From the IMG/VR virus record IMGVR_UViG_3300017783_004014: a stretch of DNA of 64,000 nt; one strand, 5' to 3'. Positions 26,002 to 50,319 of this stretch are shown here, in pieces (position 1 is the stretch's first letter; every line of letters begins with the position of its first letter). The position numbers and the translations under genes are program-made. The DNA is from a virus. Below the pieces are notes generated by a model. The model did no database searches and had not been told where the DNA came from. It worked only from the letters and a program-made list of their open reading frames with translations.

Positions 26002-26304
26002 TTGCCGATAGAACGCAAAGATAGATCATTTGATTTGATTTTTGATCAAGTTACAATGGATCATGTTCCGGCTGACTACATAGACGAAGTTCATATTCAT
26101 ATGTTAAGTGGCGACACAGTTGTCCTTTCTAAAGAAGATTTACTTTTGCTACGTAATAGTCCGGATACAAAAGAAGATATCATTAGTACATTAATACGTG
26201 ATGATATGAGTGAGATTAGTCTTAAATTAGATTATGATGCAATTAAGAGCGATGTGTTAAGCGGTGTAACAAATTTTTTAGGCAAATACTTTGACGACAA
26301 GTAA
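26002..26304 (+). CDS. Hypothetical protein
   Basis: 100-aa ORF, TTG start. Confidence 0.55.
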   Translation: MPIERKDRSFDLIFDQVTMDHVPADYIDEVHIHMLSGDTVVLSKEDLLLLRNSPDTKEDIISTLIRDDMSEISLKLDYDAIKSDVLSGVTNFLGKYFDDK

Positions 26305-26953
26305 CATATGGTTTTGCGGTATACCAGGTAGTAGATGGAGTGGCATTGATATACAGATGCGCTCTATCTTAACCTGTGACAGATCAGACGAAACTCCAGA
26401 CAGAACACAATATCATAGACCAGTAACACCCGGCGATCCTGATAACGGACATCGAGGAAGTTATTGGGGACCAGGAATGGGATGCGGAGAAGATTGGATA
26501 GACTTTAATTTTCTTACACCTAATAAACTACAGGATGATATAAACAACGTGTTCTCTGGTAGCGGTTATCGCATCATCAAAGGACATGTATTTGCAAGAC
26601 ATTTCAATTTAGATTATATTTGGAATCACTTCAAAGGTGATAAAATAGTTTTGATTTATCGAGAACCACAAAAAAGTTTTGCTTGGTGGAGCGAAGTCAT
26701 GTGTTTTGATGAAGACCATTATCCAGACTACAGACCTGGTTACAAAGACTATAATAGAATGTGGGAATTACTTTGGCAGGAAAGTAGTAATATTACAGAC
26801 TTTGCCTTTCGTAAAGGCATGAACTTTTCTCAGTATAATGTAAAACTATTTGAACAATGGAATGGCTATAAACAAAGTGTTGCACAACCTTTTTTAGATA
26901 TTAATAAAAACAAACACAGTGACGTCTACATTGCTACAGCTACAATTGACTAG
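26291..26953 (+). CDS. Sulfotransferase-like P-loop protein
   Basis: WFCGIPGSRWSG resembles the 5'-PSB loop; IIKGH; KIVLIYREP resembles the 3'-PB motif. Confidence 0.5.
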   Translation: MTTSNIWFCGIPGSRWSGIDIQMRSILTCDRSDETPDRTQYHRPVTPGDPDNGHRGSYWGPGMGCGEDWIDFNFLTPNKLQDDINNVFSGSGYRIIKGHVFARHFNLDYIWNHFKGDKIVLIYREPQKSFAWWSEVMCFDEDHYPDYRPGYKDYNRMWELLWQESSNITDFAFRKGMNFSQYNVKLFEQWNGYKQSVAQPFLDINKNKHSDVYIATATID

Positions 26954-26961
26954 CATAAATA
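26954..26961 (+). promoter_or_regulatory. Late-promoter-like CATAAATA before the first cluster radical SAM gene
   Basis: Intergenic, 47 nt upstream of ATG 27009; short AT-rich word. Confidence 0.45.
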
Positions 26962-27008
26962 ACGTAGTAGAAGGTGCAGACGAACTTGCACAAAAAAAAG
27001 AGTAATTA

Positions 27009-28430
27009 ATGTCAGAACAAGATCATCCGCTTCCATCGGATACCTTCTGTATACTTCCATGGATTCATTTATCAACAAGACCAGACGGTAGTATGCGAGT
27101 ATGTTGTACAGCAAATGCAAGTGCCGTAGGCGCTACAAATGATAAAGAACACGGAGGCCGTGTTGGAATTGTTAAAACAGAAGATGGAAAACCTGCAAAC
27201 CTAAACAACAGCGATCTCGATAGTGCATGGAATAACACCTACATGCGTAGTGTTAGACAAATGATGATTGCAGGTGAAAAGCCAGCTAGTTGTTTAAAAT
27301 GCTACAAAGAAGAAGCTGCAGGACACAGATCAAAACGCCAATGGGAAACACAATATTGGATTAATAATGGTATTGATCCAAATCAATTAATAGAAGAAAC
27401 ATTTGAAGATGGTTCAACCAACGCTAATCTAGTTTATATAGATATTCGTATGGGAACAAAATGCCAACTAGGTTGTGTAATGTGTAGCCCACATGACTCA
27501 AGTGGTTGGGTTAAAGATTTCCAAAAAATTTATCCTAAAATTGAAAACCCTGTTCTAAAAGAAACTATGGTATGGGAGAACAAAGGTAGAGAATTTGGTG
27601 CAAGTTACAATTGGCACAAAGATAATCCTACGTTCTGGAATCAATTTTATGCTCAAGTTCCCAATATGAGACAATTGTATTTTGCAGGTGGCGAATCAAC
27701 TGTTATTAACGAACATTATGAAATACTAGACAAAGTAATTGAGATGGGCTATGCTAGCGGCATGGAAGTTAGATACAATTCAAATGGTATTGAAATTCCT
27801 GACAGACTACTAGAACAATGGAAACACTTTAAGAAAGTAAGATTTCATTATTCAGTTGATAGTATAGGTGTAATGAATGACTATATTAGATATCCAAGCA
27901 AATGGGAACATAATCTAAAACAATTTGAATTACTTGATACTAAAACATCAAACAATGTAGAAATTACTATTGCTTGTGCAGTAAATGCTCTTAACATTTA
28001 TTATATTCCAGACTTCCTTAAATGGAAACTTCAGGATAGCGGACTACATAAAACAAACATGTGGCCATTTGGTGCAGGTGGTATTAACTATCACTTTGTA
28101 TACTGGCCAGGACACTTAAATGTTAAAGTGCTTCCACGAGAATTCATAGATAAATGCGAAGCTAAGTATGAAGAATTTATTGAATGGTGGAAAGAAAATT
28201 GGGAACTAGGTGTTCCTAGTTGGCACAAAGGAAAAGTTACATACGAACAATGGGAAAATGCAAACTACGGTATTAAAAGACTTCGTGGTATGATCAATTT
28301 TGCACGTAGTGAAGATTGGACACGTAGACTTCCAGAGTTCAGAGAATATTTAACAAAGCTAGATGAACAACGTGGCACAGATTTTCGTGCTACATTTCCA
28401 GAAATGGCTTATTTATTAGACGAGGAATAA
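27009..28430 (+). CDS. N-terminal-twitch radical SAM protein (cluster RS1)
   Basis: FCILPW..GSMRVCC..SCLKC..SKR; CQLGCVMC; FAGGE. Confidence 0.92.
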   Translation: MSEQDHPLPSDTFCILPWIHLSTRPDGSMRVCCTANASAVGATNDKEHGGRVGIVKTEDGKPANLNNSDLDSAWNNTYMRSVRQMMIAGEKPASCLKCYKEEAAGHRSKRQWETQYWINNGIDPNQLIEETFEDGSTNANLVYIDIRMGTKCQLGCVMCSPHDSSGWVKDFQKIYPKIENPVLKETMVWENKGREFGASYNWHKDNPTFWNQFYAQVPNMRQLYFAGGESTVINEHYEILDKVIEMGYASGMEVRYNSNGIEIPDRLLEQWKHFKKVRFHYSVDSIGVMNDYIRYPSKWEHNLKQFELLDTKTSNNVEITIACAVNALNIYYIPDFLKWKLQDSGLHKTNMWPFGAGGINYHFVYWPGHLNVKVLPREFIDKCEAKYEEFIEWWKENWELGVPSWHKGKVTYEQWENANYGIKRLRGMINFARSEDWTRRLPEFREYLTKLDEQRGTDFRATFPEMAYLLDEE

Positions 28431-28431
28431 C

Positions 28432-29010
28432 ATGAAATATTTATTAGTTGCACTTGAAACAGAAGTGCCAGACATTCAATTACCTGATGATTACACACTA
28501 ATGATTACAGGTGTTGGTAAAGTAAACGCTACCATTATGGCTACTATTGCAGCTCTTAGCAAAGACTGTGAATGTATTATTAATTATGGAACAGCAGGAA
28601 CTTTCAATTCTAAGCTAATTAACAAACTACATAGAATTGGAATAGTAAAACAGCGAGATATGGATGCTCGCCCACAAGCAAAGTTAGGCATTACACCCTT
28701 TGAAGAAACAGATTTCAAAGGAGACTTAGCAATTTATCCAGGTAGTAACTATACGTTAAGCACAGGTGATAACTTTGTTAAAACCAAACAAAAAGTAAAA
28801 TCAGATCTTGTTGACATGGAAGGTTATGCTATTGCTAAAGTAGCTGGTATGTTTAACAAGCCATGTATACTACTTAAATATGCAAGCGACTTAGCTGATG
28901 ACAAGGCACCAGAAGATTGGCTTGCTAATCAAGCAAATGGTAAAAATATGTTTTTAGCTTGGTTAGATGACATGGAAAAGAATATTCAAGAATTAAAAAA
29001 TGAGCAATAA
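28432..29010 (+). CDS. mtnN: 5'-methylthioadenosine/S-adenosylhomocysteine nucleosidase
   Basis: GVGKVNA, INYGTAG, STGDNFV, VDMEGYAIA, KYASDLAD. Confidence 0.85.
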   Translation: MKYLLVALETEVPDIQLPDDYTLMITGVGKVNATIMATIAALSKDCECIINYGTAGTFNSKLINKLHRIGIVKQRDMDARPQAKLGITPFEETDFKGDLAIYPGSNYTLSTGDNFVKTKQKVKSDLVDMEGYAIAKVAGMFNKPCILLKYASDLADDKAPEDWLANQANGKNMFLAWLDDMEKNIQELKNEQ

Positions 29011-30271
29011 TGATTCAGGCTTTTGTGCATTACCTTTTGTTCAATATAGTACGTACAACGGCGGTCGCTATAGACTTTGCTGTATGGCTAAAGAACCAGA
29101 GACACTAGTTGACCAAGAAATACTAGGTATTGCAGGAACATGGAATCATAATTATATCCGTGATGTGCGAAGAAGGATGACATCTGGCGAGTGGATGCCA
29201 GAATGTGTGGAATGTGATCATCTGGAGCGCAATGGTATTGTAAGTTCACGACAATGGGAAAATAAACAGTGGGCAGATGTGATAGACGGAGTAGTGGCTG
29301 AAGCCTCCGTCGACGAATGGAAGGTTCCACAACCTTTACAATTCGATTTTAGGTTGGGCAATTTATGTAATCTACAATGTCAAATGTGTAATAAGGAGGC
29401 ATCTCACTTAGTTAGTGTGGAGAGGGCTCATATGAATCAAAACGGACTGGGGTTAGATCACCCCGATTGGCAAGGCATGATTGCTACAAAGAAAGAGGCA
29501 CTTCTACAACCTGGAATAGACTGGACTAGCTTCGAGGAAATGTTGAGTGGGGCTAGAAAAATTAAAATAATAGGCGGTGAGCCAACAGTATCACCTGATA
29601 TGTTTAAACTGTTGGACAAGGCTGTAGAATCCGGAGACGCTGGTCATATAGAACTAAGTTTTTATACAAATATAACAAACATGCAAGACAGGTGGCTTGA
29701 ACAACTTGCACAGTTTGAAAAAGTGATCGTCAACTGCTCCTTGGAAGGCATGGGCCAAATGAATGACTATTTGCGTCCACCTTCCAAGTGGGATTCTGTA
29801 TGGAAACATTTTGATAAACTTGTTAAATTCAGTAACACAAAAAGAGGTAAAACTATCAAAGTTAGAGTCACTACAGTGAATCAAATGACCAATGCTTTAC
29901 ACATTGCAGACTTTTGGAGATACATGCATGACTACCAAATGACAAGCGATAGGGGTATAGGCATGAGCACCAATCAACTAATTGAACCACATTACTACAG
30001 TATGTCGCACAGTCCTTTATGGCTACGTGAAAAACAAGAAGAACAAATACTTAGATTTTTAGACAGCATAGGTAACAGTCCTCATTTAGAAGATTATGAA
30101 GAACCTCTTATGGAAGTAATTCAGTTTGGTAAAGACCCACAACACGAATATAATCCTTCTATCATGCGCCAGTATGTTCAAGTTACAGAAAACTATGATA
30201 GGTTTAGGAAACACAACATAATGGATGTTGCTCCTGAATTTGCTAGAATAAAAAGTGAATTAAATATCTAA
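29000..30271 (+). CDS. N-terminal-twitch radical SAM protein (RS2)
   Basis: FCALPF..GRYRLCC..ECVEC..SSR; CNLQCQMC; IIGGEP. Confidence 0.92.
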   Translation: MSNNDSGFCALPFVQYSTYNGGRYRLCCMAKEPETLVDQEILGIAGTWNHNYIRDVRRRMTSGEWMPECVECDHLERNGIVSSRQWENKQWADVIDGVVAEASVDEWKVPQPLQFDFRLGNLCNLQCQMCNKEASHLVSVERAHMNQNGLGLDHPDWQGMIATKKEALLQPGIDWTSFEEMLSGARKIKIIGGEPTVSPDMFKLLDKAVESGDAGHIELSFYTNITNMQDRWLEQLAQFEKVIVNCSLEGMGQMNDYLRPPSKWDSVWKHFDKLVKFSNTKRGKTIKVRVTTVNQMTNALHIADFWRYMHDYQMTSDRGIGMSTNQLIEPHYYSMSHSPLWLREKQEEQILRFLDSIGNSPHLEDYEEPLMEVIQFGKDPQHEYNPSIMRQYVQVTENYDRFRKHNIMDVAPEFARIKSELNI

Positions 30272-31168
30272 GTAATTCATATGACAGTCATTGTCATAAT
30301 AATTTTTCATTACTTTTTCTAAGTTTGTCCATGTAGTATCATAACTTTCAAAATTAAATATTTGCTCTGCATAATCATTTATATTATCATCAGTTAAAGT
30401 AATAGTTTCACTGTTTATAAATTCACCACTATTAATTACATTTACAACTTTGTGTTTATGTTCTGCTTTGTTTATTATACGAGTAGGATCTTCTCTCCAA
30501 TTGGAATGATAAATGTTAAAACACTCGTTATGATGTAACCATGCTTCTGTTAAGTTACCCATACGCAATCCTAGTTTTGCATAGTGAGCATCACAATGAT
30601 TATCATTTACAATTACCCATGCAGGTTTAGTTGGGTGTGGGTTTGCAATAGTATTACAATTTTTCTTACCCACTCTAAATAGTATACTGTTTTTTTGTTC
30701 CTTTACTTCTGGAACATAATGCCAACTGAACGGACTTGCTTTGATTGCATAAAAATAATTAGGCTTACAAGGTATAGTTCTTTCGCCGTCTTTTTCAATT
30801 ACAATTACACCTTGATTATCATTTAGGTAAATTTGACTTGTGATTAACCAACGAAACTTTTTTAAATCATTATGATGTTCTAGCCAACTATTTTTTTCGT
30901 CCATATGATAACTTACGTAGTGGTGATCGTGATTATAAACTTTACCAAGCATTTGTGTTTTCAAAACAGGTAATACTGAATACTCTATCCAGTCACACAA
31001 TTCCGTATCATATAGTTCTGCAGGACCGCTATAGTTGCCATATAAACTACTATCGTGTTCATCTACTTCTGGATTACTACAGTAGTCTCTTATCCATTGT
31101 TCTGGGTAGTTATTAATATATTTGTCTGCAAATTGTTTAGGCAGCCAATCTGCTTTTTCATAAACCAC
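30260..31168 (-). CDS. 2OG-Fe(II) oxygenase with C-terminal extension
   Basis: WLEHHND (HxD), SQIYLN, distal SWHYV. Confidence 0.65.
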   Translation of the reverse strand: MVYEKADWLPKQFADKYINNYPEQWIRDYCSNPEVDEHDSSLYGNYSGPAELYDTELCDWIEYSVLPVLKTQMLGKVYNHDHHYVSYHMDEKNSWLEHHNDLKKFRWLITSQIYLNDNQGVIVIEKDGERTIPCKPNYFYAIKASPFSWHYVPEVKEQKNSILFRVGKKNCNTIANPHPTKPAWVIVNDNHCDAHYAKLGLRMGNLTEAWLHHNECFNIYHSNWREDPTRIINKAEHKHKVVNVINSGEFINSETITLTDDNINDYAEQIFNFESYDTTWTNLEKVMKNYYDNDCHMNYLDI

Positions 31169-31988
31169 GTATTCTCTCCGCCATACATAGCTCTGGATCT
31201 ATTAAACTTTTATTGAGAATATCTGCTTCAAAGCATTGTAATTTGGTGCCAAATACTATTTGATGTGTAATCCATTGAGCATTAAAAAACCATATATCAC
31301 CTGGATTAAATGTTATATAGTGCAATGGATGATGAAATTGATCCCACATTTCATCATTCCATACGCAACGATTACGCATTTCTGTTATAAATTTGTGTAC
31401 ATCATCTTTATCTATATTCTGTAAATCAAAATCCCTATAATATTTGTGATACATTTGTTCTAAGTCTGGACCAAATGTTAATACTCTGGGTCGTTTTTTA
31501 TCGAGCTGAACAAACATTCTTATTTGTTGTTCATGTCCTGTATGTTGTTCGTCTAATTCATCTAAGTGTAATTTATTTTCTACTAGTGTATTATACCTAT
31601 GTGATAACATTCTTTCAGTGGTTTCATACCTTGGAAACAGCTCGTCAAATATCTGATTCCATCCCTCGTTTGCCTTCTTATGTTTCTTATGAAAAATATC
31701 AATCTCATCCTCAGTCCAACCGCGTTCTGTCCTTAAACGTTCTCTTTTTTTAATATGGCTGTTATACCAAGGCATGATCCACTTATTGTCTTTGATTGTC
31801 CAGTCTGGCAAGCTATCATAGTATTCATAGTCTACACCAGGAATATTCATATTCTTTATAACTACAGGCCATCCACTTTCAAATGCTCTATATAGTTTGT
31901 CATTGTCTGATATGTTGTCTGTTTGATAATCAAAAACAAAAACTTTAAATTCTTCTTTCGCAATACTGTCATACGCAATACGTGTCAT
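31158..31988 (-). CDS. Kdo hydroxylase (KdoO)-like oxygenase
   Basis: KLHLD, IRMFVQLD..PRV..FGPDLE, FNPGDIWFFNAQWITHQIVFG recall the Kdo_hydroxy family layout. Confidence 0.6.
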   Translation of the reverse strand: MTRIAYDSIAKEEFKVFVFDYQTDNISDNDKLYRAFESGWPVVIKNMNIPGVDYEYYDSLPDWTIKDNKWIMPWYNSHIKKRERLRTERGWTEDEIDIFHKKHKKANEGWNQIFDELFPRYETTERMLSHRYNTLVENKLHLDELDEQHTGHEQQIRMFVQLDKKRPRVLTFGPDLEQMYHKYYRDFDLQNIDKDDVHKFITEMRNRCVWNDEMWDQFHHPLHYITFNPGDIWFFNAQWITHQIVFGTKLQCFEADILNKSLIDPELCMAERIRGL

Positions 31989-32034
31989 TGTTCACCTTTT
32001 CGATTGATTTTTACTTAGTCCTATTATATACTAA

Positions 32035-32060
32035 GATAAATATTAACACAAGTATTTATA
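32035..32060. promoter_or_regulatory. Face-to-face late-promoter-like motifs serving divergent genes
   Basis: GATAAATA on + (32035-32042) and TATAAATA on - (32053-32060); direct repeat TATACTAAGA at 32027 and 32057. Confidence 0.5.
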
Positions 32061-32074
32061 CTAAGAGGATATCT

Positions 32075-33139
32075 ATGACAAAATCTGTAAATGTATGGAG
32101 CGAGTTTCAGCCCCTTAAGAAGGTTGTGCTCGGTGCTCCGTTTCCCCCAGACACATTTAAGTGGCACAAAGACGAAGAAACTCGTAATGTAATGAAACAA
32201 ATTTTTGAAGAGACAGCAGAAGATATTGCTGAGCTAGAAAAAGTTTTAGTTAACTTGGGCGTAGAAGTATTACGACCTAAAAACATTTTTACTATCACAG
32301 GCGAAGAACAAATAAGATTACCTTGGATGAGCTGTGGCTTTCCCAACCATCCATTAATGCCACGTGATACATTAATGCCATATGGTAACACAATTTTTGA
32401 ATGTTTTACTGGAGGCGATAACAGATACTTTGAAAATCTTGCCTATTATGATCACTGTGTAGAATGGTTTAAAGATGGTGCTGAATGGGTCAGTATGCCA
32501 GGTGCAATGGTAGATAATAGAACTTATGAAGAGTATTCAGATAATACTATTTTATACCATGCTGCTAATATGATAAAATGTGGAAACACTATTTTGTTTT
32601 CAGCATCGTGGGAACAAGATAACAAAAAAGGCAAAGGAACATTGTTAGGCAAAGAATGGATAAAACGTGAAATAAGTTTACGTTATCCTGGAACACGTTT
32701 TTTGGATGTTCCAGTTGGTGGACACATTGATGGTAAGATTGCTCTACTGAAGCCGGGTGTGCTTATGACATGGAATGCAAAATGGGTTCCAGAAGAAATG
32801 CAAGACTGGAATATAATTGAAGTAGAAGATGATGACTTTATGCCTGAAGATTTTTTACAAACAAGAAAACGTAGGTTTCATAAAGAATATGTAAGTAAAT
32901 GGTTGGGCCATTGGGTAGGTTATCCAGACGAAAGTGTATTCGATGTTAATGTATTAAGTGTAAACGAAAGCACAGTAATATGCACAGGTAAAAACGAAGC
33001 TGCATTTGCACAAATGGAAGCAAATGGTATCACTCCTATCTACTGGAATTTTCGTCATCAGTATTTCTGGGATGGAGGTATTCATTGTTTAACAAGTGAT
33101 ATTGTTAGAGAAGGCGATTGCGAGGATTACATTAACTAA
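32075..33139 (+). CDS. Amidinotransferase (glycine/inosamine-phosphate type, pentein fold)
   Basis: VWSEFQPLKKVVLG, MPRD, GHIDG, GGIHCLTSDIVR (Asp-His-Cys triad); start moved to ATG 32075 after AGAGG. Confidence 0.9.
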   Translation: MTKSVNVWSEFQPLKKVVLGAPFPPDTFKWHKDEETRNVMKQIFEETAEDIAELEKVLVNLGVEVLRPKNIFTITGEEQIRLPWMSCGFPNHPLMPRDTLMPYGNTIFECFTGGDNRYFENLAYYDHCVEWFKDGAEWVSMPGAMVDNRTYEEYSDNTILYHAANMIKCGNTILFSASWEQDNKKGKGTLLGKEWIKREISLRYPGTRFLDVPVGGHIDGKIALLKPGVLMTWNAKWVPEEMQDWNIIEVEDDDFMPEDFLQTRKRRFHKEYVSKWLGHWVGYPDESVFDVNVLSVNESTVICTGKNEAAFAQMEANGITPIYWNFRHQYFWDGGIHCLTSDIVREGDCEDYIN

Positions 33140-34383
33140 TGAGTATAAAACAATTTGTAAATGATGATGCATATCCAACCTGTTTGGCTCCATGGCATGC
33201 TATTACAATAAAATGGGGAGGTAATGTAATCCCTGATATCATATACAAAGGAAGTCTGGGGAACATTAATAGACAAACACTAAAAGAAATATTAGAAGGT
33301 GAGAAGGCAACTGCACTAAGAACTGCACACCGAAGTAGAGCATTACCAGAAACTTGTATAGGTTGTCAAAAGAAAGAAAAAAGTGGAAAAAGTAGACGTC
33401 TTTATTTTTGGGATAGACTTGATTGGGATGTAAAAAGAGAAAGTAAAAATTTACTTGTAGACACTCCACATGATATTAGATATCTTGACTTTACATTAAG
33501 TAACAAATGTAACCTTGCATGTATCCATTGTAGTCCTTTTGTTAGCACAGGTTGGACCAAAGACGGAAAAAAACTAAACAAAGAAGCTCCTGTGTATTGG
33601 GGAGAACAGCCTATTGGTTATCATGGTGCAGATGTAAACTTTATGGATAATTTATTTGCTAACCCAGAGTATTTTAAAAATCTACAGTGGGTAGCACTTA
33701 GAGGTGGCGAACCCCTTTATGATGAAAAGTGTAAAGAACTATTACAGTGGTTTATTGACAATGGTAAAGCACAAGAACTAATGCTTGATATAAGCACCAA
33801 TGCTACAGTATTTGATGAAGACTTTAGACAGATGTTTAAGTATTTTAAACACATTGAACTTAATATTAGTATAGAAGCTACAGATCAACTTTACAGTATT
33901 ATTAGGGGTGGCAAATACGAGTGGACTGAATTACAAGAAAACATAGAAAAATTTTACGAGTATGATAACATTGAAGTTGTATTTGCGGTTACAGTAATGA
34001 ATACAAATATTATGCAACTAGATAAAATCTGGGACTGGTTTGATATGTATCATAAGAACAAAGCCAGTATTAGTATGAGTAATGTTGTAGTAAATCCTAG
34101 TTATTTAAATATTGCATATTTGCCTCAAGAATTAAAACATATAGCACTAGATAAAATTGCTAGAATACCAAACCAGGCAATATGGCCTGCAGGTAGCTAC
34201 CATGAAAAAGAACACGAATACGGAACAGGTATTGAGAGTATCAAAAACGGATTATTAAATGTTCCTGATTTTGACGAACAACAAAAGTATTGGAAATACT
34301 TTTTACAATACACAAAGGACTTGGATAGATTACGAAAAACAAATACTTTTGCAGAAGTGAAAGAATTCAAATATTATGAATAG
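33139..34383 (+). CDS. N-terminal-twitch radical SAM protein (RS3, degenerate twitch)
   Basis: TCLAPW..GNVIPD (no CC)..TCIGC..SRR; CNLACIHC; LRGGEP. Confidence 0.9.
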   Translation: MSIKQFVNDDAYPTCLAPWHAITIKWGGNVIPDIIYKGSLGNINRQTLKEILEGEKATALRTAHRSRALPETCIGCQKKEKSGKSRRLYFWDRLDWDVKRESKNLLVDTPHDIRYLDFTLSNKCNLACIHCSPFVSTGWTKDGKKLNKEAPVYWGEQPIGYHGADVNFMDNLFANPEYFKNLQWVALRGGEPLYDEKCKELLQWFIDNGKAQELMLDISTNATVFDEDFRQMFKYFKHIELNISIEATDQLYSIIRGGKYEWTELQENIEKFYEYDNIEVVFAVTVMNTNIMQLDKIWDWFDMYHKNKASISMSNVVVNPSYLNIAYLPQELKHIALDKIARIPNQAIWPAGSYHEKEHEYGTGIESIKNGLLNVPDFDEQQKYWKYFLQYTKDLDRLRKTNTFAEVKEFKYYE

Positions 34384-39750: not shown

Positions 39751-41162
39751 GATTTAATTTAGAACTTTCAACATCGCCAGAATACGGTCGTATAGTTCAT
39801 GTACTAACTAAAGATGATCTTTTACAGGGTATAGAAAATAACGAATACATGAGAATACTTAAAACAGTAACACACAATTCACTTGTAAACACTGCTGATG
39901 GATCATTGTTAGAATGGCATGCTGGAATGCACGAACCTAATCATTTTAATTATCTAGTTAGATATATGAAACAATTAAATTTTGAATATATGTTTCTCTG
40001 GTATGAAGGTAATAAAGTCGAACATGGAATAGAAGATGCATTTTTAGAATGGACAAAATATAGATCAGCAGACTGGACTATGATGGGACATATACTTTAT
40101 AGAAAAGGAAGATGTCCTGTATTTCACGAACAATGTGTTGTTATCAATCTTAAAAATATCAATGAGGATACTAACTTAATATACTTTGATGAAGAAAATG
40201 CAGACTTCGTTGCTAGTAAAGAAAATGTACATGATGACTATACACCTTTGTGGATAAAGTCTGCTCCTGGTAGTCATAACAGAGAAAAAAGATCTAAGAG
40301 TATTTTAGATACTATCATGTGGAATTTACTTAGTCAAGGTCATACAGTGGTTAACGTGCCACACAGTATGCGTGACTTAAAATTTTGTCCATATGCTGAT
40401 GAGGATCAGGAAGAAACAGTAGCATGGTTGCTAGACGACAATCTAAGCAAAATGACATTAGAAGAAGGTTTTGAACTCTGGGACAAAATTGGCGAAGATA
40501 AAGAGATACTTGCTGAGTGTATATTACAAAAAGATGTAGTCTATGTTACAAACACAGATGATACTGAGGTAATGTTTCAACCAGATGTAGATACACTTAT
40601 TGGACCAGCTAGTGGACTTAATCAATTTATGTATGCTGTATTGAATATTAAAACTATTAAAAGAATGGTATGGACTGATTTTAGTCCACTTGCTATATGG
40701 TGGACAAAATATATTTTAGAAAATTGGAATGGTAGAGACTTTAGAGACTTTTGGTTTGCCCATAAACATAAACTGGAACAACGAGCAAACGATCCAAAAC
40801 TAATAGAAGTAAATTTTGACAAATTAGATACGCTGAATGATTATTTTAATGAACTAGATGATTCTATGTGGACAACAATACAAAGTTTAGATCATGTATT
40901 TTTAGAAATAGACTTGATCAAAGATTATCATAAGGTATTAGACGTAGTAAAAGACTCTAATGTTTTCATGCAAATGACAAATATCTACATGTATGAAGCT
41001 AATTTTATTTTTAATAAATACCATAAAGTATTTGAATCTTTTTATAGTTTCTTAAACAAAATGGTAAGTGCTAATAAGAATGTATATTTTATTGGCGACA
41101 CACCGCATGGTAGGAAATACAGATATGAGCCTATTAATTTAAATAGAGTAGATAAAATTTAG
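39747..41162 (+). CDS. Unknown family paralog 3
   Basis: GHIL..PVFHEQ, HDDYTPLWI, YVTNTD, PASGLNQF, WTDFSP, TNIYMYE, YFIGDTP. Confidence 0.65.
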   Translation: MRFNLELSTSPEYGRIVHVLTKDDLLQGIENNEYMRILKTVTHNSLVNTADGSLLEWHAGMHEPNHFNYLVRYMKQLNFEYMFLWYEGNKVEHGIEDAFLEWTKYRSADWTMMGHILYRKGRCPVFHEQCVVINLKNINEDTNLIYFDEENADFVASKENVHDDYTPLWIKSAPGSHNREKRSKSILDTIMWNLLSQGHTVVNVPHSMRDLKFCPYADEDQEETVAWLLDDNLSKMTLEEGFELWDKIGEDKEILAECILQKDVVYVTNTDDTEVMFQPDVDTLIGPASGLNQFMYAVLNIKTIKRMVWTDFSPLAIWWTKYILENWNGRDFRDFWFAHKHKLEQRANDPKLIEVNFDKLDTLNDYFNELDDSMWTTIQSLDHVFLEIDLIKDYHKVLDVVKDSNVFMQMTNIYMYEANFIFNKYHKVFESFYSFLNKMVSANKNVYFIGDTPHGRKYRYEPINLNRVDKI

Positions 41163-41172
41163 GAGAAAATAA

Positions 41173-41916
41173 ATGTGGGTAGACCAAGGACCAGTACATT
41201 ATCCAATAGAGGTAAATGAAAGAACTAGAAAATTCTTTGAAGAAAATGAATTCAAAGAACAAAAGTTATCTGGATTAGACAAAGGCTTGTTATATGATGA
41301 GCATGACCCTAACAAAGTTATTGACAATACATTATTACCGTGGATACCTGTGCCCATTGAAGTGCCGCACAAGGAAATACTAGAAGAATCTATGCATTTA
41401 CTTGATACAGGATGTTTTACAGCTCACAGACCTGATAGTAGTGGTTGGTTGAGTATATGTATACATGGTATGAGTAGTGTACATACAAACTGTCCTGAGG
41501 ACTATAACATGCCAGACGAAATGGAAGATGAACTTAGCACATGGACTGATATTGCACGTTACTGTCCACGTACAGTTGAGTGGATGAAAGATACAGTATG
41601 CTATGAAAAATATACTAGAGTTAGATATATGGCAGTATTGCCAGATGGTTGGCTAATGCCACATGTAGATAGACAACGTTTTACTGGTGTAGGTGCAACT
41701 AATGTTGCAATTAATAATCCCGAAGGCTGTAAGTTGGTAATGAAAGACTGGGGAGAAATGCCTTTTGATCCTGGCAAGATGTTTAAGATTAATACTGGAT
41801 ACGAACATGCGGTATGGAACAGATCAGATGAGCCTCGCATTCATATGATTTTTGATGGTGACATGGGCGACTACTTTAAAAGCAAAGTATTGGAAGGTTA
41901 CAAACCTTATGCCTAA
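41173..41916 (+). CDS. Aspartyl/asparaginyl beta-hydroxylase-like 2OG-Fe(II) oxygenase
   Basis: RVRYM..LMPHVD, INTGYEHAVWN.SDEPRIHMIFD. Confidence 0.85.
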   Translation: MWVDQGPVHYPIEVNERTRKFFEENEFKEQKLSGLDKGLLYDEHDPNKVIDNTLLPWIPVPIEVPHKEILEESMHLLDTGCFTAHRPDSSGWLSICIHGMSSVHTNCPEDYNMPDEMEDELSTWTDIARYCPRTVEWMKDTVCYEKYTRVRYMAVLPDGWLMPHVDRQRFTGVGATNVAINNPEGCKLVMKDWGEMPFDPGKMFKINTGYEHAVWNRSDEPRIHMIFDGDMGDYFKSKVLEGYKPYA

Positions 41917-42973: not shown

Positions 42974-42982
42974 GAAATTAAA

Positions 42983-43888
42983 ATGAATTACGGAGAATTT
43001 GAAACTAGTGGGAACAGCATATGGAATCAACCTTTCTTTGATCACTTGGAAGAAAACTATTTTTCCAACGTTCCACTTGATGGAATGCAACAAGAAGCAG
43101 ATGAGTTTCTCAACATATATCCAGAATGGATATTATCAAGTAAAATGAATAAATTTACAGGCTTTGATAAATTACCATATCGATTTGTAAGTCTAGGAAC
43201 TACACAAGCAATGGACTGGTGGCACTATTGGACTATGTCAGAAGGTAGACGTCTGAGAATGTACAAGGGAGAATATCCTTACAACAGAGATGTGCTATTA
43301 GAAGAAGAGTGGATGAACATACGTTATATTGACGAAACACCACTTGCTCCTGGTGACAGTGTAATTATAAGTTTTCCATTCAGTGGCACAGGTGGTAAAC
43401 ATTCAGAAATGGAAAAAATGTTTGATTTATGCGACGAAATGGATATTCCTGTGTTTGTTGATTGTGCATGGTTCGGAACGTGTTATGACTTAGAAGGAGA
43501 TCTTAACAGAGATTGTATCAAAATGATTGCATTTAGCACAACAAAAGGTTTAAGCTGTGGCAATTGGCGTAGCGGAATTGTGTTTAGTAGACTTGATGTA
43601 GGATCTTTGAGTGTGCAAACAGAATGGCATCATGGTATACATTTAAATGTATCATTGGCAAATTGTTTATTCAAAGAATTTTCTCCAGATACAGTTCCAA
43701 AAAAGTTTAAAGTTTCACAACATGCGGTATGTGAACATTATGGGCTGGAACCTACTAGCACTATTCATATTGCACAAGCACCTAAAACAGATGAATGGAA
43801 TCACTTTGCTAGAGATGGTGCATATAATAGAGTAAATATAAGGAAGGCCGTAAAAAGATATAAATCAACTGGGGAATTTAGCCACTAA
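42983..43888 (+). CDS. Fold-type I PLP-dependent enzyme (aminotransferase or decarboxylase)
   Basis: LGTTQA, GEYPY, IISFPFSGTG, VFVDCAW (PLP Asp), FSTTKG (Schiff-base Lys). Confidence 0.7.
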   Translation: MNYGEFETSGNSIWNQPFFDHLEENYFSNVPLDGMQQEADEFLNIYPEWILSSKMNKFTGFDKLPYRFVSLGTTQAMDWWHYWTMSEGRRLRMYKGEYPYNRDVLLEEEWMNIRYIDETPLAPGDSVIISFPFSGTGGKHSEMEKMFDLCDEMDIPVFVDCAWFGTCYDLEGDLNRDCIKMIAFSTTKGLSCGNWRSGIVFSRLDVGSLSVQTEWHHGIHLNVSLANCLFKEFSPDTVPKKFKVSQHAVCEHYGLEPTSTIHIAQAPKTDEWNHFARDGAYNRVNIRKAVKRYKSTGEFSH

Positions 43889-45105
43889 TGAAAACAACTA
43901 AACCATTACCAAGTAAAACATTTTGCGTTTTACCTTTTATGCATATTGCTACAAATCCTGGCGGTAGTTATAGATTATGTTGTAATAGCAATCCAAATAA
44001 CAATCAGATCAAAGATGAAAACGGAAAACCATTTAAAATTTTTAAACATGATGTAGAAGAAGTCTGGAATAGCGAACATTATAAAAAAATTCGCAAGCAA
44101 TTTATTGATGGCGAAATGCCTAGCACATGTGAAAGATGTTACAGAGAAGAAGATTCGGGAATTCGTAGTCCACGTGCAGGTTTTAATGAAAAATGGTGGA
44201 CAGATGATGTTATTGTTGCAGAAGATATTCCAGTTGATATTCGCTACATTGATTTGCGTTTAGGTAACTTATGTAATTTAAAATGCCGTATGTGTAATCC
44301 TTGGGCTAGCAGTATGTGGGTAAAAGATTGGAATGAAGTAGTTCCTACAGCAAAACTTGCTCCATCTGATCCTATAAATGATGACACACTTGCGTACATG
44401 AAAGTTATGACTGAATGGCCAGACTATAAAAAAACAGAACTAAACTTTCAAGATATTTCACATACTGTTGAAGAAATATATCTTACAGGTGGTGAGCCAA
44501 CACTAGCAGTATCTCAATATAAATTACTAGACTATTGCATTGAAAATAATTTAGCAAAAAATATTAGATTGAAGTATAACACTAATTTGACAAATATTCC
44601 TCCTAAAATGATAGAATACTGGGCAGACTTTAAACGTGTTCAATTAAACTGTTCTATTGATGCAGTAGGCGAACGTGATAGATATATTAGATATCCAAGC
44701 AATTGGAAAAAAGTAGAACAAAATTTTGATGCTCTAAGTAAATTACCAAACGTTAATATTCAAATACACTGTACAGTTCAAGCTCTAAATATTTGTGTAT
44801 TACATGAATTATTAGATTTTGCTGGTAGTAGAGGCTTAGAAGGAGATCAAGTATATCTTAATATTCTTAATCATCCTAGTTGTTTAAACATTAGAGTGCT
44901 TCCTATGGAACTAAAAAATATGGCTGCAAACAGTCTTGCTGAATATTTTCATTGGCCAAAAGTTGAAGATACAATCAAATATATGTTTGCAGAAGATTGG
45001 CATGAAAAACATTGGGAAGAATTTAAAGCATACAATCTTAAAACTGATACACTTCAAAAAATGAATTTGTTAGAAACTTGTAAGGAATTTAATAGTTTTG
45101 TCTAG
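43888..45105 (+). CDS. N-terminal-twitch radical SAM protein (RS7)
   Basis: FCVLPF..GSYRLCC..TCERC..SPR; CNLKCRMC; LTGGEP. Confidence 0.92.
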   Translation: MKTTKPLPSKTFCVLPFMHIATNPGGSYRLCCNSNPNNNQIKDENGKPFKIFKHDVEEVWNSEHYKKIRKQFIDGEMPSTCERCYREEDSGIRSPRAGFNEKWWTDDVIVAEDIPVDIRYIDLRLGNLCNLKCRMCNPWASSMWVKDWNEVVPTAKLAPSDPINDDTLAYMKVMTEWPDYKKTELNFQDISHTVEEIYLTGGEPTLAVSQYKLLDYCIENNLAKNIRLKYNTNLTNIPPKMIEYWADFKRVQLNCSIDAVGERDRYIRYPSNWKKVEQNFDALSKLPNVNIQIHCTVQALNICVLHELLDFAGSRGLEGDQVYLNILNHPSCLNIRVLPMELKNMAANSLAEYFHWPKVEDTIKYMFAEDWHEKHWEEFKAYNLKTDTLQKMNLLETCKEFNSFV

Positions 45106-46231
45106 ATGTACTAGTATAAAAAATCAGTTCTTTTTTGATCCTGATGGACTTAACACATACTGTTGTGAAAGTGTTCCACCTGGTACGCCAGAACGAAAAC
45201 AATTTAAACTTCAAGATTGGGATGCAAAACGTACATACGAACTAGACTTATATGAAAAAAGTAAACAAGGATGGCTAGAAGAATGTTTGCTTTGTAAACG
45301 CAATGAAGACAGAGATGGCGAAAGTATGAGAACTAGGATTAACGCAGACCACGATGAACAAGATAATGATTATATACAAAGTGCTATCATAAAAACAAGT
45401 AATCATTGTAATATGGGATGCAGAATGTGTGAGCCAAGTTTAAGCACGTTTTGGCAAAGAGTTGTTAAGAAAAATCCTAGTAAAGAATTCAATGCGGGCA
45501 AATATCAATTAGATGAACCTACAGATAATGATATGGAAATACTCAAAGATAAAGTTTTTACAGAACATCTACATAACATTGTTTTCAGTGGCGGTGAAAG
45601 TTTACTCAGTAAAAAGAATTATCAAATTATTGAACACTTGTTAGAGACAGGACATTGCAAAAACATTGCATTACACATCACTACAAACGGTAGTGTTAAA
45701 ATAAAAGACGCATGGCTTGATGCAAGTAAACACTTTAAACAGTTTACAATGGAGTTTAGTATCGATGGTGGTGGACATGTGTATGAATATATTAGACCAG
45801 GATCCAGTTGGGACACTCTAGTAGATGTAATCAATTATACAAAGAATGTAGCACCAGATACAGAATGGTTGTTTAACTATGTTGCTCAAGCGTTAAATGC
45901 ACATCACATGGATGAAGATGAGCGTATGGTAATGGGATTATTTGATGGGGTTAAACTTATTGATCCAGAATGGGCAGATCATCTAAGTATATGTTATCAA
46001 ATGCCAGAGGATAGTTATGTTGTAGTGCATCCCAAACTAAGAGAAAAATATGGTATTGGTTATTGGACAGAAGATTTTGATTTTTGCGAAGAGACTTTTG
46101 CAAAATTTATGCGTAAAATGGCATGGCTAGATAAAGCACATGGAACCAGTTTAGAAAAACTTAATCCGGACTTTTTTGATACAAACATTTATTCAAAGGA
46201 AAAAATTAATGAATATTATCGCAACAGGTAA
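45098..46231 (+). CDS. N-terminal-twitch radical SAM protein (RS8)
   Basis: RC..TYCC..ECLLC..SMR; CNMGCRMC; FSGGE. Confidence 0.88.
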   Translation: MSRCTSIKNQFFFDPDGLNTYCCESVPPGTPERKQFKLQDWDAKRTYELDLYEKSKQGWLEECLLCKRNEDRDGESMRTRINADHDEQDNDYIQSAIIKTSNHCNMGCRMCEPSLSTFWQRVVKKNPSKEFNAGKYQLDEPTDNDMEILKDKVFTEHLHNIVFSGGESLLSKKNYQIIEHLLETGHCKNIALHITTNGSVKIKDAWLDASKHFKQFTMEFSIDGGGHVYEYIRPGSSWDTLVDVINYTKNVAPDTEWLFNYVAQALNAHHMDEDERMVMGLFDGVKLIDPEWADHLSICYQMPEDSYVVVHPKLREKYGIGYWTEDFDFCEETFAKFMRKMAWLDKAHGTSLEKLNPDFFDTNIYSKEKINEYYRNR

Positions 46232-46772
46232 TCCAGAATTTGGTGTAGCAAATGCAATTGCAGAGCGTTGGCCAGATACTGAATTTGTAGGTAGAACAAC
46301 ATGGGGTTACGATTTAACAGAAAACGGTTATAAAGCAAAGCTAGCAGAAAAGGCTCTTAAATATGATGTTTTTATTAATTGCAGCGCACTATGGCAGTAC
46401 CATCAAACTTTACTACTAGATGTTGTCTACAAACATGCCTTAACCAACCTAAAACGGCTACATATTGTGTCTTTAGGCAGTACAACTGACAGAGCCACCA
46501 AAGGCTCAGACTGGCATTATCAACAAGAAAAAAAAGCATTGCGCTCAACTAGCAATGCATTAGGACTTAAAAGTATATGGGCAGGTGGTCCTAAAGTAAC
46601 ATATGTAACATTTGGAACATTAGAGAATAATGCACATAAACATCCTGGTCGTAAAGTAATGACTTTAAATGAGGCTGTAGATTTGATTGACTTTTCTATC
46701 AATATGCCGTATCATTTAAACGTAAACGAATTAAGTGTTGATCCTATACAAACAGATTGGCCAGAGGAATAA
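46209..46772 (+). CDS. Short-chain dehydrogenase/reductase
   Basis: IIATGNPEFGVA, DVFINCSA, VSLGS, YQQEK (YxxxK). Confidence 0.75.
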   Translation: MNIIATGNPEFGVANAIAERWPDTEFVGRTTWGYDLTENGYKAKLAEKALKYDVFINCSALWQYHQTLLLDVVYKHALTNLKRLHIVSLGSTTDRATKGSDWHYQQEKKALRSTSNALGLKSIWAGGPKVTYVTFGTLENNAHKHPGRKVMTLNEAVDLIDFSINMPYHLNVNELSVDPIQTDWPEE

Positions 46773-46774
46773 TA

Positions 46775-47941
46775 ATGAGTGACGATCTAAAATGGAGTGA
46801 ATACGACTTTACTAAAACACCATACGATGATTTAGTTAGAGTGGGTCAACGAACTATGCTGTATCGTGATATGTTTACAGTAAGTTGGCTACTTGGACGC
46901 TTCTGCAACTATCGTTGTAGTTACTGTTGGCCCTATGCTAGAAGTGATAGGAAAGACCATCGTCCTACAGAACTTTGTTTAAAGACAGTTGATGAAATTA
47001 AAAGACAGGCTAGAGAGCGTGGATTTAACAGTTACCACTTTTCGTTAAGTGGAGGAGAGCCAACATTTCATCCTGGATATCTTGATATCATGAAACACTT
47101 ATCAGATGATGCACCAAACACAAATTATACAAGTGTACACATGACAAGTAATTGTAGTAGACCTATGAAGTGGTTTGAAACTTATGTGGACCATGCAAGT
47201 AAATTTCATAGAGCTAGTATTACAGCAAGTCTACACACAGAGCATGTAAATTCTCCTGAAAAGATGCAGCAGTTTGCAGACAAATTAATATTCTGTCAAG
47301 AGCATGATGTGCAGGTTACAATTAATCAAGTTATGGTTCCTGAGTGGTTTGAACGTGATTGGGAAAATGCGTTATTTTTTCATAATCAAGGTATTAATGT
47401 AACACTAAAACCTCAAAGTGATCCAACAGCAAGTAAAATTGTAGGTGGTTATACAGATGAAATGAAGCAAAGGTTATGGAATGGTATGCCACAACGTGCA
47501 TACACAGAAGCAAAAGCAAAACAAACACAATATGTTGAAAGACCAATACCAACATTTATGATTGATAAAGATGATGATTATAGAAAACAAAGTGCTGGTG
47601 TTCCGTGGCACATGCAAATAGAATTTAGAGATAGTAAGGGAGACCCTTACTACATGGATCAAGCGGAGAGATTTAATGCATTTAACTTCAACAACTTTAA
47701 TGGATGGGAATGTAGTTCAGGTTACCGTTCAATTATTATTCGAGAGCCTGACGGAAGTATCAAACGTAGTTACTCTTGTCACGATCAGCCTTTAGGTAAC
47801 ATCGAGACAGGCTTTAAATTGTTTGATGGTCCTACTAAATGTACAACAGGTGCTTGTGTAAGTAGTGCTGATAGTAAAATACCCAAACGCAAGCCAGGTG
47901 TTAAAATGCCTTTGTTTCCAGGCGATACAACATTTAAATGA
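46775..47941 (+). CDS. Radical SAM protein with C-terminal Cys-rich SPASM/twitch-like region (RS9)
   Basis: CNYRCSYC, LSGGEP, C-terminal ECSSG..DGSIKRSYSC..KCTTGAC. Confidence 0.9.
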   Translation: MSDDLKWSEYDFTKTPYDDLVRVGQRTMLYRDMFTVSWLLGRFCNYRCSYCWPYARSDRKDHRPTELCLKTVDEIKRQARERGFNSYHFSLSGGEPTFHPGYLDIMKHLSDDAPNTNYTSVHMTSNCSRPMKWFETYVDHASKFHRASITASLHTEHVNSPEKMQQFADKLIFCQEHDVQVTINQVMVPEWFERDWENALFFHNQGINVTLKPQSDPTASKIVGGYTDEMKQRLWNGMPQRAYTEAKAKQTQYVERPIPTFMIDKDDDYRKQSAGVPWHMQIEFRDSKGDPYYMDQAERFNAFNFNNFNGWECSSGYRSIIIREPDGSIKRSYSCHDQPLGNIETGFKLFDGPTKCTTGACVSSADSKIPKRKPGVKMPLFPGDTTFK

Positions 47942-50115: not shown

Positions 50116-50319
50116 TTATATTTTTTTGTCTGCTTCAAAACAATCAAATTGTATACTATAGTATTCGTTTTCGATATGTTTGGTCCATTGATCGTCTACT
50201 ATTAATGCTTCACACTGTGATTTAGACATAGGATTATTATTTACAAATTGATTTCCCATGTATACCCATTCACTTCCATTAAACCCCCACATGCTTATTA
50301 CTAATACAAAGGTTTTCAT
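50116..50319 (-). CDS. Small hypothetical protein
   Basis: 67 aa, hydrophobic N terminus, two cysteines. Confidence 0.5.
   Translation of the reverse strand: MKTFVLVISMWGFNGSEWVYMGNQFVNNNPMSKSQCEALIVDDQWTKHIENEYYSIQFDCFEADKKI

Follow-up and report, generated by a model that had tools for sequence, protein, structure and literature searches.

A gene cluster rich in radical SAM enzymes, shared by marine T4-like phages and Bdellovibrionota, and its possible role in sugar tailoring

What does a phage make with nine radical S-adenosylmethionine (SAM) enzymes encoded almost side by side? The question is raised by IMG/VR record IMGVR_UViG_3300017783_004014, a viral DNA of 64,000 nucleotides (this whole stretch is called the window below). 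Positions 26291–47941 of the window hold a 21.6-kb cluster of 20 open reading frames (ORFs) for soluble enzymes, whose ends overlap (by 1–17 nt) or abut (Table 1). The GC content of the window is about 0.34, and its genes run on the plus strand until about 48.1 kb, where the strand switches; only two of the 20 cluster ORFs (30260–31168 and 31158–31988) are on the minus strand. A preliminary description made from the letters alone had proposed a 20-gene enzyme cluster with nine radical SAM genes, and this was borne out. All nine proteins keep the CxxxCxxC motif, and no structural or replication gene lies within 26291–47941. The genes recur as a syntenic block across many marine phages, and Bdellovibrionota have homologous clusters. 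The balance of the evidence tips slightly towards a cytoplasmic pathway of several steps in which a sugar-type unit, derived from a carbohydrate or a sugar nucleotide, would be tailored and then transferred to an acceptor. This sugar reading is drawn from the folds of three paralogs with a glycosyltransferase-like (GT) and a methyltransferase-like (MT) domain, hereafter GT-MT proteins, from the fusion of their family to a hydroxylase, from the conserved gene set, from glycan contexts elsewhere, from an amidinotransferase resembling StrB1 and HsvA, and from the support genes.

The radical SAM enzymes belong mostly to one family. With 173.7–407.6 bits, eight of the nine pass the curated cut-off of 170 bits of N_Twi_rSAM ('twitch domain-containing radical SAM protein', NF033640), a family defined in NCBIfam by a sequence model only. 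The Pfam model Radical_SAM matches all nine and eight of them reach its gathering score, while the protein of 27009–28430 obtains 26.6 against 29.5 bits. As is typical of the family, a Cys-rich SPASM/twitch-like domain (C13, CC31-32, C81, C84) precedes the catalytic core with its CxxxCxxC motif in the eight N_Twi copies. Pfam SPASM falls on residues 13–99 in five of the eight, four of them above the Pfam cut-off; C13, C81 and C84 are conserved, and CC31-32 is present in eight of nine N_Twi paralogs. The paralogs within the window share a mutual identity of only 20–31%, whereas the ortholog of each in related contigs is 50–90% identical. Therefore, the role of each copy is old and separate, and the copies are not recent duplicates. 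The ninth enzyme, at 46757–47941, stands outside the family (45.7 bits with NF033640) and its viperin/MoaA-like matches are weak. A phmmer search with this protein, and another with the hydroxylase described below, gave nothing useful. The most family-typical copy, at 43888–45105, has 3784 homologs at E<=1e-10; its model (predicted local distance difference test, pLDDT, 83) has SkfB, anSME and BlsE as the nearest solved folds. A tenth N_Twi-like radical SAM gene is located outside the cluster at 3297–4379.

The three paralogs, which the preliminary description could not name, are real: copies 2 and 3 are 37% identical to each other and about 20% identical to copy 1. All of their 46 homologs are metagenomic, and a Pfam domain was found in none. 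An AlphaFold model of copy 2 was built on a 42-sequence alignment with a mean pLDDT of 90.4. Residues 11–260 of the model adopt a GT-A fold, with Z scores of 10.3 against majastridin (2nxv), 10.1 against the Mimivirus collagen glucosyltransferase R699 (9dyt) and about 9.0 against SpsA and the PBCV-1 capsid glycosyltransferase A64R; the collagen glycosyltransferases LH3/ColGalT1 are also among the matches. Residues 265–479 adopt a class I methyltransferase fold (Z 11.9 for 6ulo, 9.5 for CheR and 9.4 for INMT), in which G298 and D319 are invariant, in keeping with the glycine-rich loop and the acidic residue ending strand 2 of such enzymes; the domain would bind SAM. The earlier suggestion that the C-terminal half looks like a SAM Rossmann fold is confirmed by this model, and the glycosyltransferase-like N-terminal domain is a new finding. 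The neighbours of copy 2 in the AlphaFold DB are GT2-like (E 5.6e-19) or carry annotations of lipopolysaccharide (LPS) biosynthesis or FkbM methyltransferase, and a profile search of the GT-MT alignment against PDB sequences gave no significant match. According to the model, the three paralogs are two-domain proteins, GT-A-like and class I methyltransferase-like.

The gene directly 3' of the GT-MT genes encodes a firm member of the Asp/Asn beta-hydroxylase family, PF05118, which includes AspH and LpxO. It obtains 43.5 bits against a cut-off of 22.6, and HxD is visible in the alignment. The hydroxylase and GT-MT genes are always adjacent in phages. In addition, a Pseudobdellovibrionaceae locus (L018, 16993–19419) encodes an 808-aa fusion of the hydroxylase (36% identity, E 1e-34) with the GT-MT family (hhalign 99.8%, E 9e-29). 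From this fusion and the constant adjacency, it can be argued that hydroxylation, glycosyl transfer and methylation share one substrate. As a side observation, rank 8 of the AlphaFold DB search is a 412-aa 'Asp/Asn/Pro hydroxylase domain' protein, the N-terminal part of which matches the methyltransferase-like domain.

What this substrate would be is the point at which the sugar reading meets its first competitor. The N_Twi enzymes may modify a protein or peptide directly by cross-links, epimerisation or oxidation, and the hydroxylase-GT-MT unit may hydroxylate and glycosylate side chains of the same protein, e.g. a virion protein, much as collagen is treated by lysyl hydroxylase and glycosyltransferases. 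Most SPASM/twitch enzymes mature peptides or proteins, and the N_Twi model has its best fold matches (SkfB, anSME, CteB, SuiB) among such maturases. PF05118 enzymes hydroxylate Asp/Asn residues of proteins, and the GT-A matches include collagen and capsid glycosyltransferases. Late-type promoter motifs are present, and a related amidinotransferase and a 2-oxoglutarate (2OG) oxygenase occur in the virion proteome of cyanophage S-SCSM2R (PMC12801897). However, no small ORF that could encode a precursor peptide lies inside the cluster, and those of related loci have no conserved counterpart in the window. Pfam and NCBIfam also revealed neither a RiPP (ribosomally synthesised and post-translationally modified peptide) recognition element (RRE) nor a leader-peptidase domain in the 20 ORFs, so that the cluster does not qualify as a RiPP cluster. 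Furthermore, the trio of amidinotransferase, aminotransferase-like and short-chain dehydrogenase/reductase (SDR)-like proteins better suits small-molecule or sugar chemistry. Direct protein modification is considered unlikely, yet it is the main rival.

Whether the genes belong together was examined in 27 phage and metagenome loci encoding the GT-MT family, the genes being counted within the range fetched. The preliminary description would have been refuted by homologs that never co-occur or are randomly shuffled, and this is not the case. In 17 of the 27 loci, the hydroxylase comes immediately after a pair of GT-MT genes (or three of them, in L001 alone), and a PLP (pyridoxal 5'-phosphate)-like gene and 5–13 N_Twi hits occur in an order shared with the window. 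Among these 17, the amidinotransferase is found in 15, the KdoO-like oxygenase in 11 and the SDR-like gene in 12. The last radical SAM type is matched in 13 loci (12 among the 17), although three of the 13 matches are only 27–32% identical. What varies between the window and other loci is the left end of the cluster (26291–31168), the presence of GT-MT copy 3 and that of the radical SAM gene at 45098; the position of the PLP-like gene here is shifted relative to the other loci. In L008, an abundant variant, the core is kept and the 21 kb examined include no amidinotransferase; a SufE gene lies immediately 5' of its cluster. The variable left end and 45098 gene and the moved PLP-like gene might speak for a hot spot of unrelated auxiliary enzyme genes with no single pathway. 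On the other hand, the core order is kept at 30–90% protein identity over many phage contigs and is recognisable in Bdellovibrionota, the genes overlap, and a fusion joins two of the families. The hot-spot explanation is largely refuted by this synteny and is hardly tenable.

The other 10 of the 27 loci carry a single GT-MT gene in other contexts, without radical SAM neighbours. Nine of them are IMG/VR loci (e.g. L098, L099 and L110). In the tenth, a 145-kb contig of an NCBI assembly (L005), the lone gene is accompanied by a carbamoyltransferase, a methyltransferase, a TctA transporter and a UDP-glucose-dehydrogenase-like gene. Therefore, the GT-MT protein can work outside the radical SAM pathway. 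Searches against 50,697 phage records gave no match, neither by megablast of the whole cluster nor by tblastn of one GT-MT paralog. A single-protein scan of IMG/VR was likewise without a match, whereas an alignment-based scan did find loci. Position 44272 follows straight on about 28240 or 29045 in single contigs of two virome DNA runs (X2 and X6), with flanks of 25–33 nt and a skip of 15–16 kb. These contigs may come from related phages with a much shorter cluster, or they may be assembly artefacts between paralogous radical SAM genes.

The distribution is not confined to phages. The alignment of nine N_Twi paralogs was too diverged to seed a genome scan, and the ortholog alignment of the 43888–45105 protein was used instead against one genome per prokaryotic species. 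The best 80 of 139 relatives (L011–L090) are overwhelmingly from Bdellovibrionota. One counterpart occupies some 30 kb of a Bdellovibrionia contig of 917 kb. It comprises 15 radical SAM genes, two Asp/Asn hydroxylases and a KdoO-like gene, together with an amidinotransferase (46% identity), a PLP-like gene (42%) and GT-MT-like genes, and it adjoins a Ser/Thr kinase gene, rpoD and dnaG. Therefore, the pathway is also cellular, and the cluster is not phage-specific. Second in frequency among the companions of N_Twi in the Bdellovibrionota loci is a radical SAM type related to 46757–47941 (41 members, 34 loci); a further radical SAM type is present in 21 loci and a PLP-like gene in 15. Two groups of GT2 glycosyltransferases accompany N_Twi in 13 and 10 loci (23 if they do not overlap), carbamoyltransferases in 8 and PfkB sugar kinases in 7. 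Complete chromosomes hold several separate loci, e.g. three in OZ241848.1. The few matches in other metagenome-assembled genomes (Crocinitomicaceae, Gammaproteobacteria MED685) may be mis-binned phage contigs.

The preliminary assignments of the remaining enzymes were of unequal value. Those of the amidinotransferase, the nucleosidase for methylthioadenosine (MTA) and S-adenosylhomocysteine (SAH), and the oxygenase of 41173–41916 are firm; those of the PLP, SDR-like, sulfotransferase-like and KdoO-like proteins and the third oxygenase are weaker. HsvA and StrB1, an inosamine-phosphate enzyme, are the closest solved amidinotransferases, and the motifs of the catalytic His and the C-terminal Cys are aligned, with G-H-I-D-G pairing with M-H-I-D-T and I-H-C-L-T with F-H-C-A-T. 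Pfam PF02274 does not match the protein even at E<=5, and its pentein membership rests on the PDB matches. Its orthologs are 77–85% identical in phage loci and 44–47% in most Bdellovibrionota loci having one, with 39% in L026. NCBIfam nucleosidase models match the nucleosidase with E down to 2e-27, yet below their cut-offs. In the 276-aa oxygenase, H141, D143 and H242 (HxD...H) are invariant in 22 homologs, Bdellovibrionota included, and 115 homologs are 58–96% identical. Its language-model score by Atlas features is 0.97. On the other hand, the 25-bit cut-off of PF11004 (KdoO) is reached neither by this protein (14.0 bits, E 0.03) nor by its Bdellovibrionota homolog (18.7 bits, E 0.0011), and a profile search of the alignment against PDB sequences gave nothing significant. 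It is probably a distant KdoO-like oxygenase rather than a KdoO. The 302-aa protein encoded beside it has orthologs in L001 and L106 only. The 301-aa PLP-like protein obtains E 0.026 with Aminotran_1_2 and 0.13 with DegT, an Atlas score of 0.99 to viral aminotransferase clusters, and an invariant Lys188 in a four-sequence alignment (A2); its alignment gave no significant match in a profile search of PDB sequences. The SDR-like protein keeps Ser-Tyr-x3-Lys, with weak PDB matches to SDR proteins (E 1e-3). The 220-aa sulfotransferase-like protein has no Pfam match and no ortholog in L001–L006.

A second rival is a free product. A soluble metabolite made during infection and left unattached to any macromolecule, e.g. 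a guanidino-aminocyclitol or an aminoglycoside-like compound, would agree with the solubility of every cluster enzyme. The StrB1/HsvA-like amidinotransferase and the aminotransferase- and dehydrogenase-like genes mirror the order of oxidation, transamination and amidination in the streptidine branch (StsC, StrB1), StrB1 being the second-best PDB match. Aminoglycoside pathways employ twitch radical SAM enzymes, BtrN among them; the twitch domain of BtrN is C-terminal, whereas it is N-terminal here. However, in the Pfam and NCBIfam searches none of the 20 ORFs matched a cyclitol-forming enzyme (inositol-phosphate synthase or 2-deoxy-scyllo-inosose synthase), a kinase or phosphatase, an exporter or a self-resistance gene, so that the locus differs from the streptidine cluster and fails as an aminocyclitol or aminoglycoside cluster. 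Moreover, the core is retained in L008, where the amidinotransferase is missing from the 21 kb covered, and three transferase-type GT-MT proteins point to attachment to an acceptor. A free metabolite is thus quite improbable. Membrane-level LPS remodelling, by analogy with KdoO and LpxO, was also considered. It was set aside as the main reading because the cluster proteins have no transmembrane segment and the KdoO assignment is below threshold.

The preferred reading, tailoring of a sugar-type unit and its transfer, allows a scheme whose substrate class, order of steps and acceptor we infer from the enzyme families. A sugar position would be oxidised by the SDR-like and/or radical SAM enzymes and aminated by the PLP enzyme. 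The amidinotransferase would turn the amine into a guanidino group with arginine as the donor. The 2OG oxygenases would supply hydroxyl groups, and the sulfotransferase-like protein may supply sulfate. Each of the eight N_Twi enzymes would perform one oxygen-independent C-H functionalisation, such as oxidation, epimerisation, dehydration or formation of a C-C or C-X bond. The three GT-MT proteins and the adjacent Asp/Asn-hydroxylase-type oxygenase would hydroxylate, glycosylate and methylate the acceptor. Finally, the MtnN-like nucleosidase would clear 5'-deoxyadenosine, SAH and MTA, and the phage SAM synthetase (MetK) would replenish SAM. The glycan option of the preliminary description has gained from the GT-A plus methyltransferase paralogs and from glycosyltransferase-rich contexts in S-SCSM2R, CP220 and Bdellovibrionota; the acceptor may be the virion, the host surface or a small molecule.

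Several observations weigh against this scheme. No cluster enzyme has a characterised close relative, and a literature search found no paper on a substrate, product or function of NF033640. The fold neighbours of N_Twi comprise the peptide maturases SkfB, anSME, CteB and SuiB as well as the nucleoside and sugar enzymes BlsE, viperin and MoaA, and the fold search of the N_Twi model does not separate peptide-acting from sugar- or nucleotide-acting relatives. The GT-A domain has no Pfam or NCBIfam glycosyltransferase match; only W-F-[D/E]-G and H-D-D-Y-T-P are conserved as acidic motifs, and a canonical DxD is unconfirmed. The PLP, SDR, sulfotransferase and KdoO-like assignments are all below threshold. 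In addition, the cluster contains no sugar-nucleotide synthase, nucleotidyltransferase, flippase or polymerase, and the absence of transmembrane segments leaves it without a membrane protein.

When the cluster is expressed bears on what it could decorate. Late-like motifs had been noted before at 26954, 32035 and 32053, and ATAAATA was located at 26955, 32036 and 32053. The placement is non-random. ATAAATA occurs at 16 sites in the window against about 40 expected, a 2.5-fold depletion relative to shuffles, and 8 of the 16 lie no more than 65 nt upstream of a same-strand start codon (with corrected starts), while only about 4% of the window is non-coding. Examples are 19711, 25027, 26955, 32036, 32053, 48922, 51600 and 60405; three serve the cluster. 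We take this motif to be the T4-type late-promoter consensus, and late expression of the cluster is therefore plausible as a motif-based prediction only. A metatranscriptome library, apparently filed twice, yielded assembled contigs that match parts of the cluster exactly at depths from 1 to about 89, against a flat 5–10 in DNA libraries. The uneven depth would fit transcription in the sea, with DNA carry-over as an alternative source. The stretch itself is found near letter-for-letter, whole or in part, in viral-fraction metagenomes (20 runs from 14 studies, 11 of which hold at least half of the sampled words), and the window also codes for a gp44-like clamp loader, thymidine kinase, an exonuclease, a MoxR-type ATPase with a VWA partner, and MetK. 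Therefore, the objection that the contig might be cellular DNA does not apply.

The timing also matters for another rival, hypermodification of phage DNA or nucleotides against host restriction. T4-like phages commonly hypermodify and glycosylate their DNA, and pathways of thymidine hypermodification include PLP and radical SAM enzymes. About 18–24 kb upstream of the cluster lie genes for a QueE-like radical SAM protein and for thymidine kinase. However, searches of the 20 ORFs with Pfam and NCBIfam found no transporter and no DNA-acting enzyme (transglycosylase, hydroxymethylase, thymidylate-synthase homolog or DNA kinase), and with no DNA- or nucleotide-acting enzyme within 26291–47941 the locus does not have the make-up of a DNA-hypermodification cluster. 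Homologous clusters lie in Bdellovibrionota chromosomes beside rpoD and dnaG, and the motifs are of the late type, whereas DNA has to be modified while it replicates. DNA hypermodification is accordingly regarded as very improbable.

The preliminary description knew of no comparable phage pathway. This has to be softened, since radical-SAM-rich T4-like genomes and modules of radical SAM and amidinotransferase genes are on record, although they are uncharacterised. A marine T4-like environmental viral genome was noted to have 12 radical SAM genes and Fe-S support genes (Nishimura et al. 2017, PMC5332604), which resembles the window with its 11. That paper gives the gene counts in the context of Fe-S metabolism and describes no cluster, synteny or function. 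The T4-like Campylobacter phage CP220 carries five radical SAM genes with a pentein amidinotransferase, beside which lie a PAP2 phosphatase and two glycosyltransferase-like genes, and the radical SAM and amidinotransferase genes of CP220/CPt10 have been described as an interchangeable, uncharacterised module (Timms et al. 2010, PMC2853527). In contrast to the window, its radical SAM proteins are below the NF033640 cut-off, its amidinotransferase is only 24% identical, and the GT-MT family is found in no record of the phage collection, CP220 included. The cultured marine T4-like cyanophage S-SCSM2R has an aminotransferase-like gene, a radical SAM gene and an amidinotransferase amid five glycosyltransferases and two 2OG oxygenases, and its second amidinotransferase adjoins KdsA and KdsB. 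It differs in having one radical SAM enzyme instead of nine, GT2/GT25 glycosyltransferases instead of the GT-MT family and an amidinotransferase of 26% similarity; its authors interpreted them as 'antibiotic synthesis genes' (PMC12801897), with reference to the block as such. PBCV-1 A64R, Mimivirus R699 and L230, and LH3 share the GT-A fold (Z 9–10), and in LH3 and Mimivirus L230 a hydroxylase and a glycosyltransferase form one unit, as in the L018 fusion. However, there is no detectable sequence similarity to them, radical SAM enzymes are absent there, and a protein acceptor is unproven here. We would place the cluster among the glycan-tailoring systems of viruses or bacteria, as a case in which an uncharacterised radical SAM family predominates.

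The window as a whole has 11 radical SAM genes, together with MetK and SufE-type support genes. The longest recorded contig with the window's own copy of the 43888–45105 protein measures 72.6 kb. Four genes located 11–23 kb upstream (3297–4379, 7688–8581, 6443–7213 and 14624–15733) are possible helpers of the cluster. A polysaccharide-lyase-family protein (PF14099) hints that the phage copes with a polysaccharide layer of its host. An HtrA-like trypsin/PDZ protease (50316–51548, minus strand), a subtilase (12–2255) and an M17 leucyl aminopeptidase (5058–6443) are also encoded.

Table 1. Genes of the 20-ORF cluster, candidate promoter motifs and further genes of the window (positions in the window; N_Twi bits refer to NF033640, cut-off 170).
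Position	Strand	Feature	Evidence and remarks
26291–26953	+	220-aa sulfotransferase-like protein, accessory	Atlas 0.97 to viral 'sulfotransferase family' clusters, sole support
26955–26961	+	Late-promoter-like motif CATAAATA	47 nt 5' of first radical SAM gene
27009–28430	+	N_Twi radical SAM, accessory copy	407.6 bits; CxxxCxxC at residue 152
28432–29010	+	MTA/SAH/5'-deoxyadenosine nucleosidase (MtnN-like)	Pfam PNP_UDP_1 50.5 bits, E 2.4e-13, above cut-off
29000–30271	+	N_Twi radical SAM, accessory copy	293 bits
30260–31168	-	302-aa distant Asp/Asn-hydroxylase-like cupin, accessory	BLASTP to 41173–41916 E 3e-5, HxD aligned
31158–31988	-	276-aa Fe(II)/2OG oxygenase, distantly KdoO-like	Highly conserved
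32036–32060	.	Divergent promoter region, with GATAAATA on the plus strand	32 nt 5' of amidinotransferase ATG
32053–32060	-	TATAAATA, perfect	64 nt 5' of KdoO-like ATG
32075–33139	+	Pentein-type amidinotransferase	PDB: HsvA 4.9e-22, StrB1 2.5e-20, SxtG 2.6e-15
33139–34383	+	N_Twi radical SAM, core	245 bits; orthologs 62–76% identity
34376–35617	+	N_Twi radical SAM, core	217.5 bits; orthologs 53–71% identity
35601–36842	+	N_Twi radical SAM, core, always immediately 5' of GT-MT genes	311.7 bits; orthologs 72–88%
36839–38314	+	GT-A-like + SAM-methyltransferase-like protein (GT-MT), copy 1	Paralog of copies 2 and 3; in alignment A1
38311–39750	+	GT-MT copy 2	The modelled copy
39747–41162	+	GT-MT copy 3	Third copy only here and in L001
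41173–41916	+	Asp/Asn beta-hydroxylase-family Fe(II)/2OG oxygenase, core, always 3' of GT-MT genes	PF05118
41852–42973	+	N_Twi radical SAM, core	214.4 bits
42983–43888	+	301-aa short fold-type-I PLP aminotransferase-like protein, core	Orthologs 49–67% identity
43888–45105	+	N_Twi radical SAM, core, most family-typical	381.6 bits
45098–46231	+	N_Twi radical SAM	173.7 bits; common only to this window and L001
46206–46772	+	Short SDR-like oxidoreductase, ~188–198 aa	Ser92, Tyr105, Lys109 invariant in five orthologs
46757–47941	+	Second-type radical SAM, without N-terminal twitch	Pfam Radical_SAM 51.1 bits; Cys-rich C-terminus
6443–7213		Truncated UDP-Glc/GDP-Man-dehydrogenase-like protein	256 aa, N-terminal and central domains only
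7688–8581		QueE-like radical SAM	phrog_2076
13416–14609		Phosphoenolpyruvate carboxykinase	
14624–15733		SAM synthetase MetK	Full-length
53771–54787	-	Polysaccharide-lyase-family protein	PF14099, E 1e-17

The N_Twi family is very large, one copy alone having 3784 homologs, and no assigned function was found for it; the cluster is a defined syntenic context in which one can be assigned. Its assets are eight diverged copies in one genome, recognisable partner enzymes, the hydroxylase-GT-MT unit, culturable Bdellovibrio-like counterparts and a smaller analog in a cultured cyanophage. A bolder proposal, rather unlikely at present, is that T4-like marine phages and predatory Bdellovibrionota, which both attack Gram-negative cells, share an undescribed, largely oxygen-independent radical-SAM route of glycan editing. 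A guanidino-, hydroxy-, methyl- and possibly sulfo-sugar would then be put by the hydroxylase-GT-MT unit on their own surface, the virion or the predator envelope, and N_Twi would be a new sugar-modifying class. Should the product prove to be a glycan of the virion or cell surface, radical-SAM chemistry would join the known routes of viral self-decoration. It would also explain the genes for Fe-S support, SAM supply and 5'-deoxyadenosine salvage in abundant ocean phages, and the biology of phages and that of bacterial predators would be linked.

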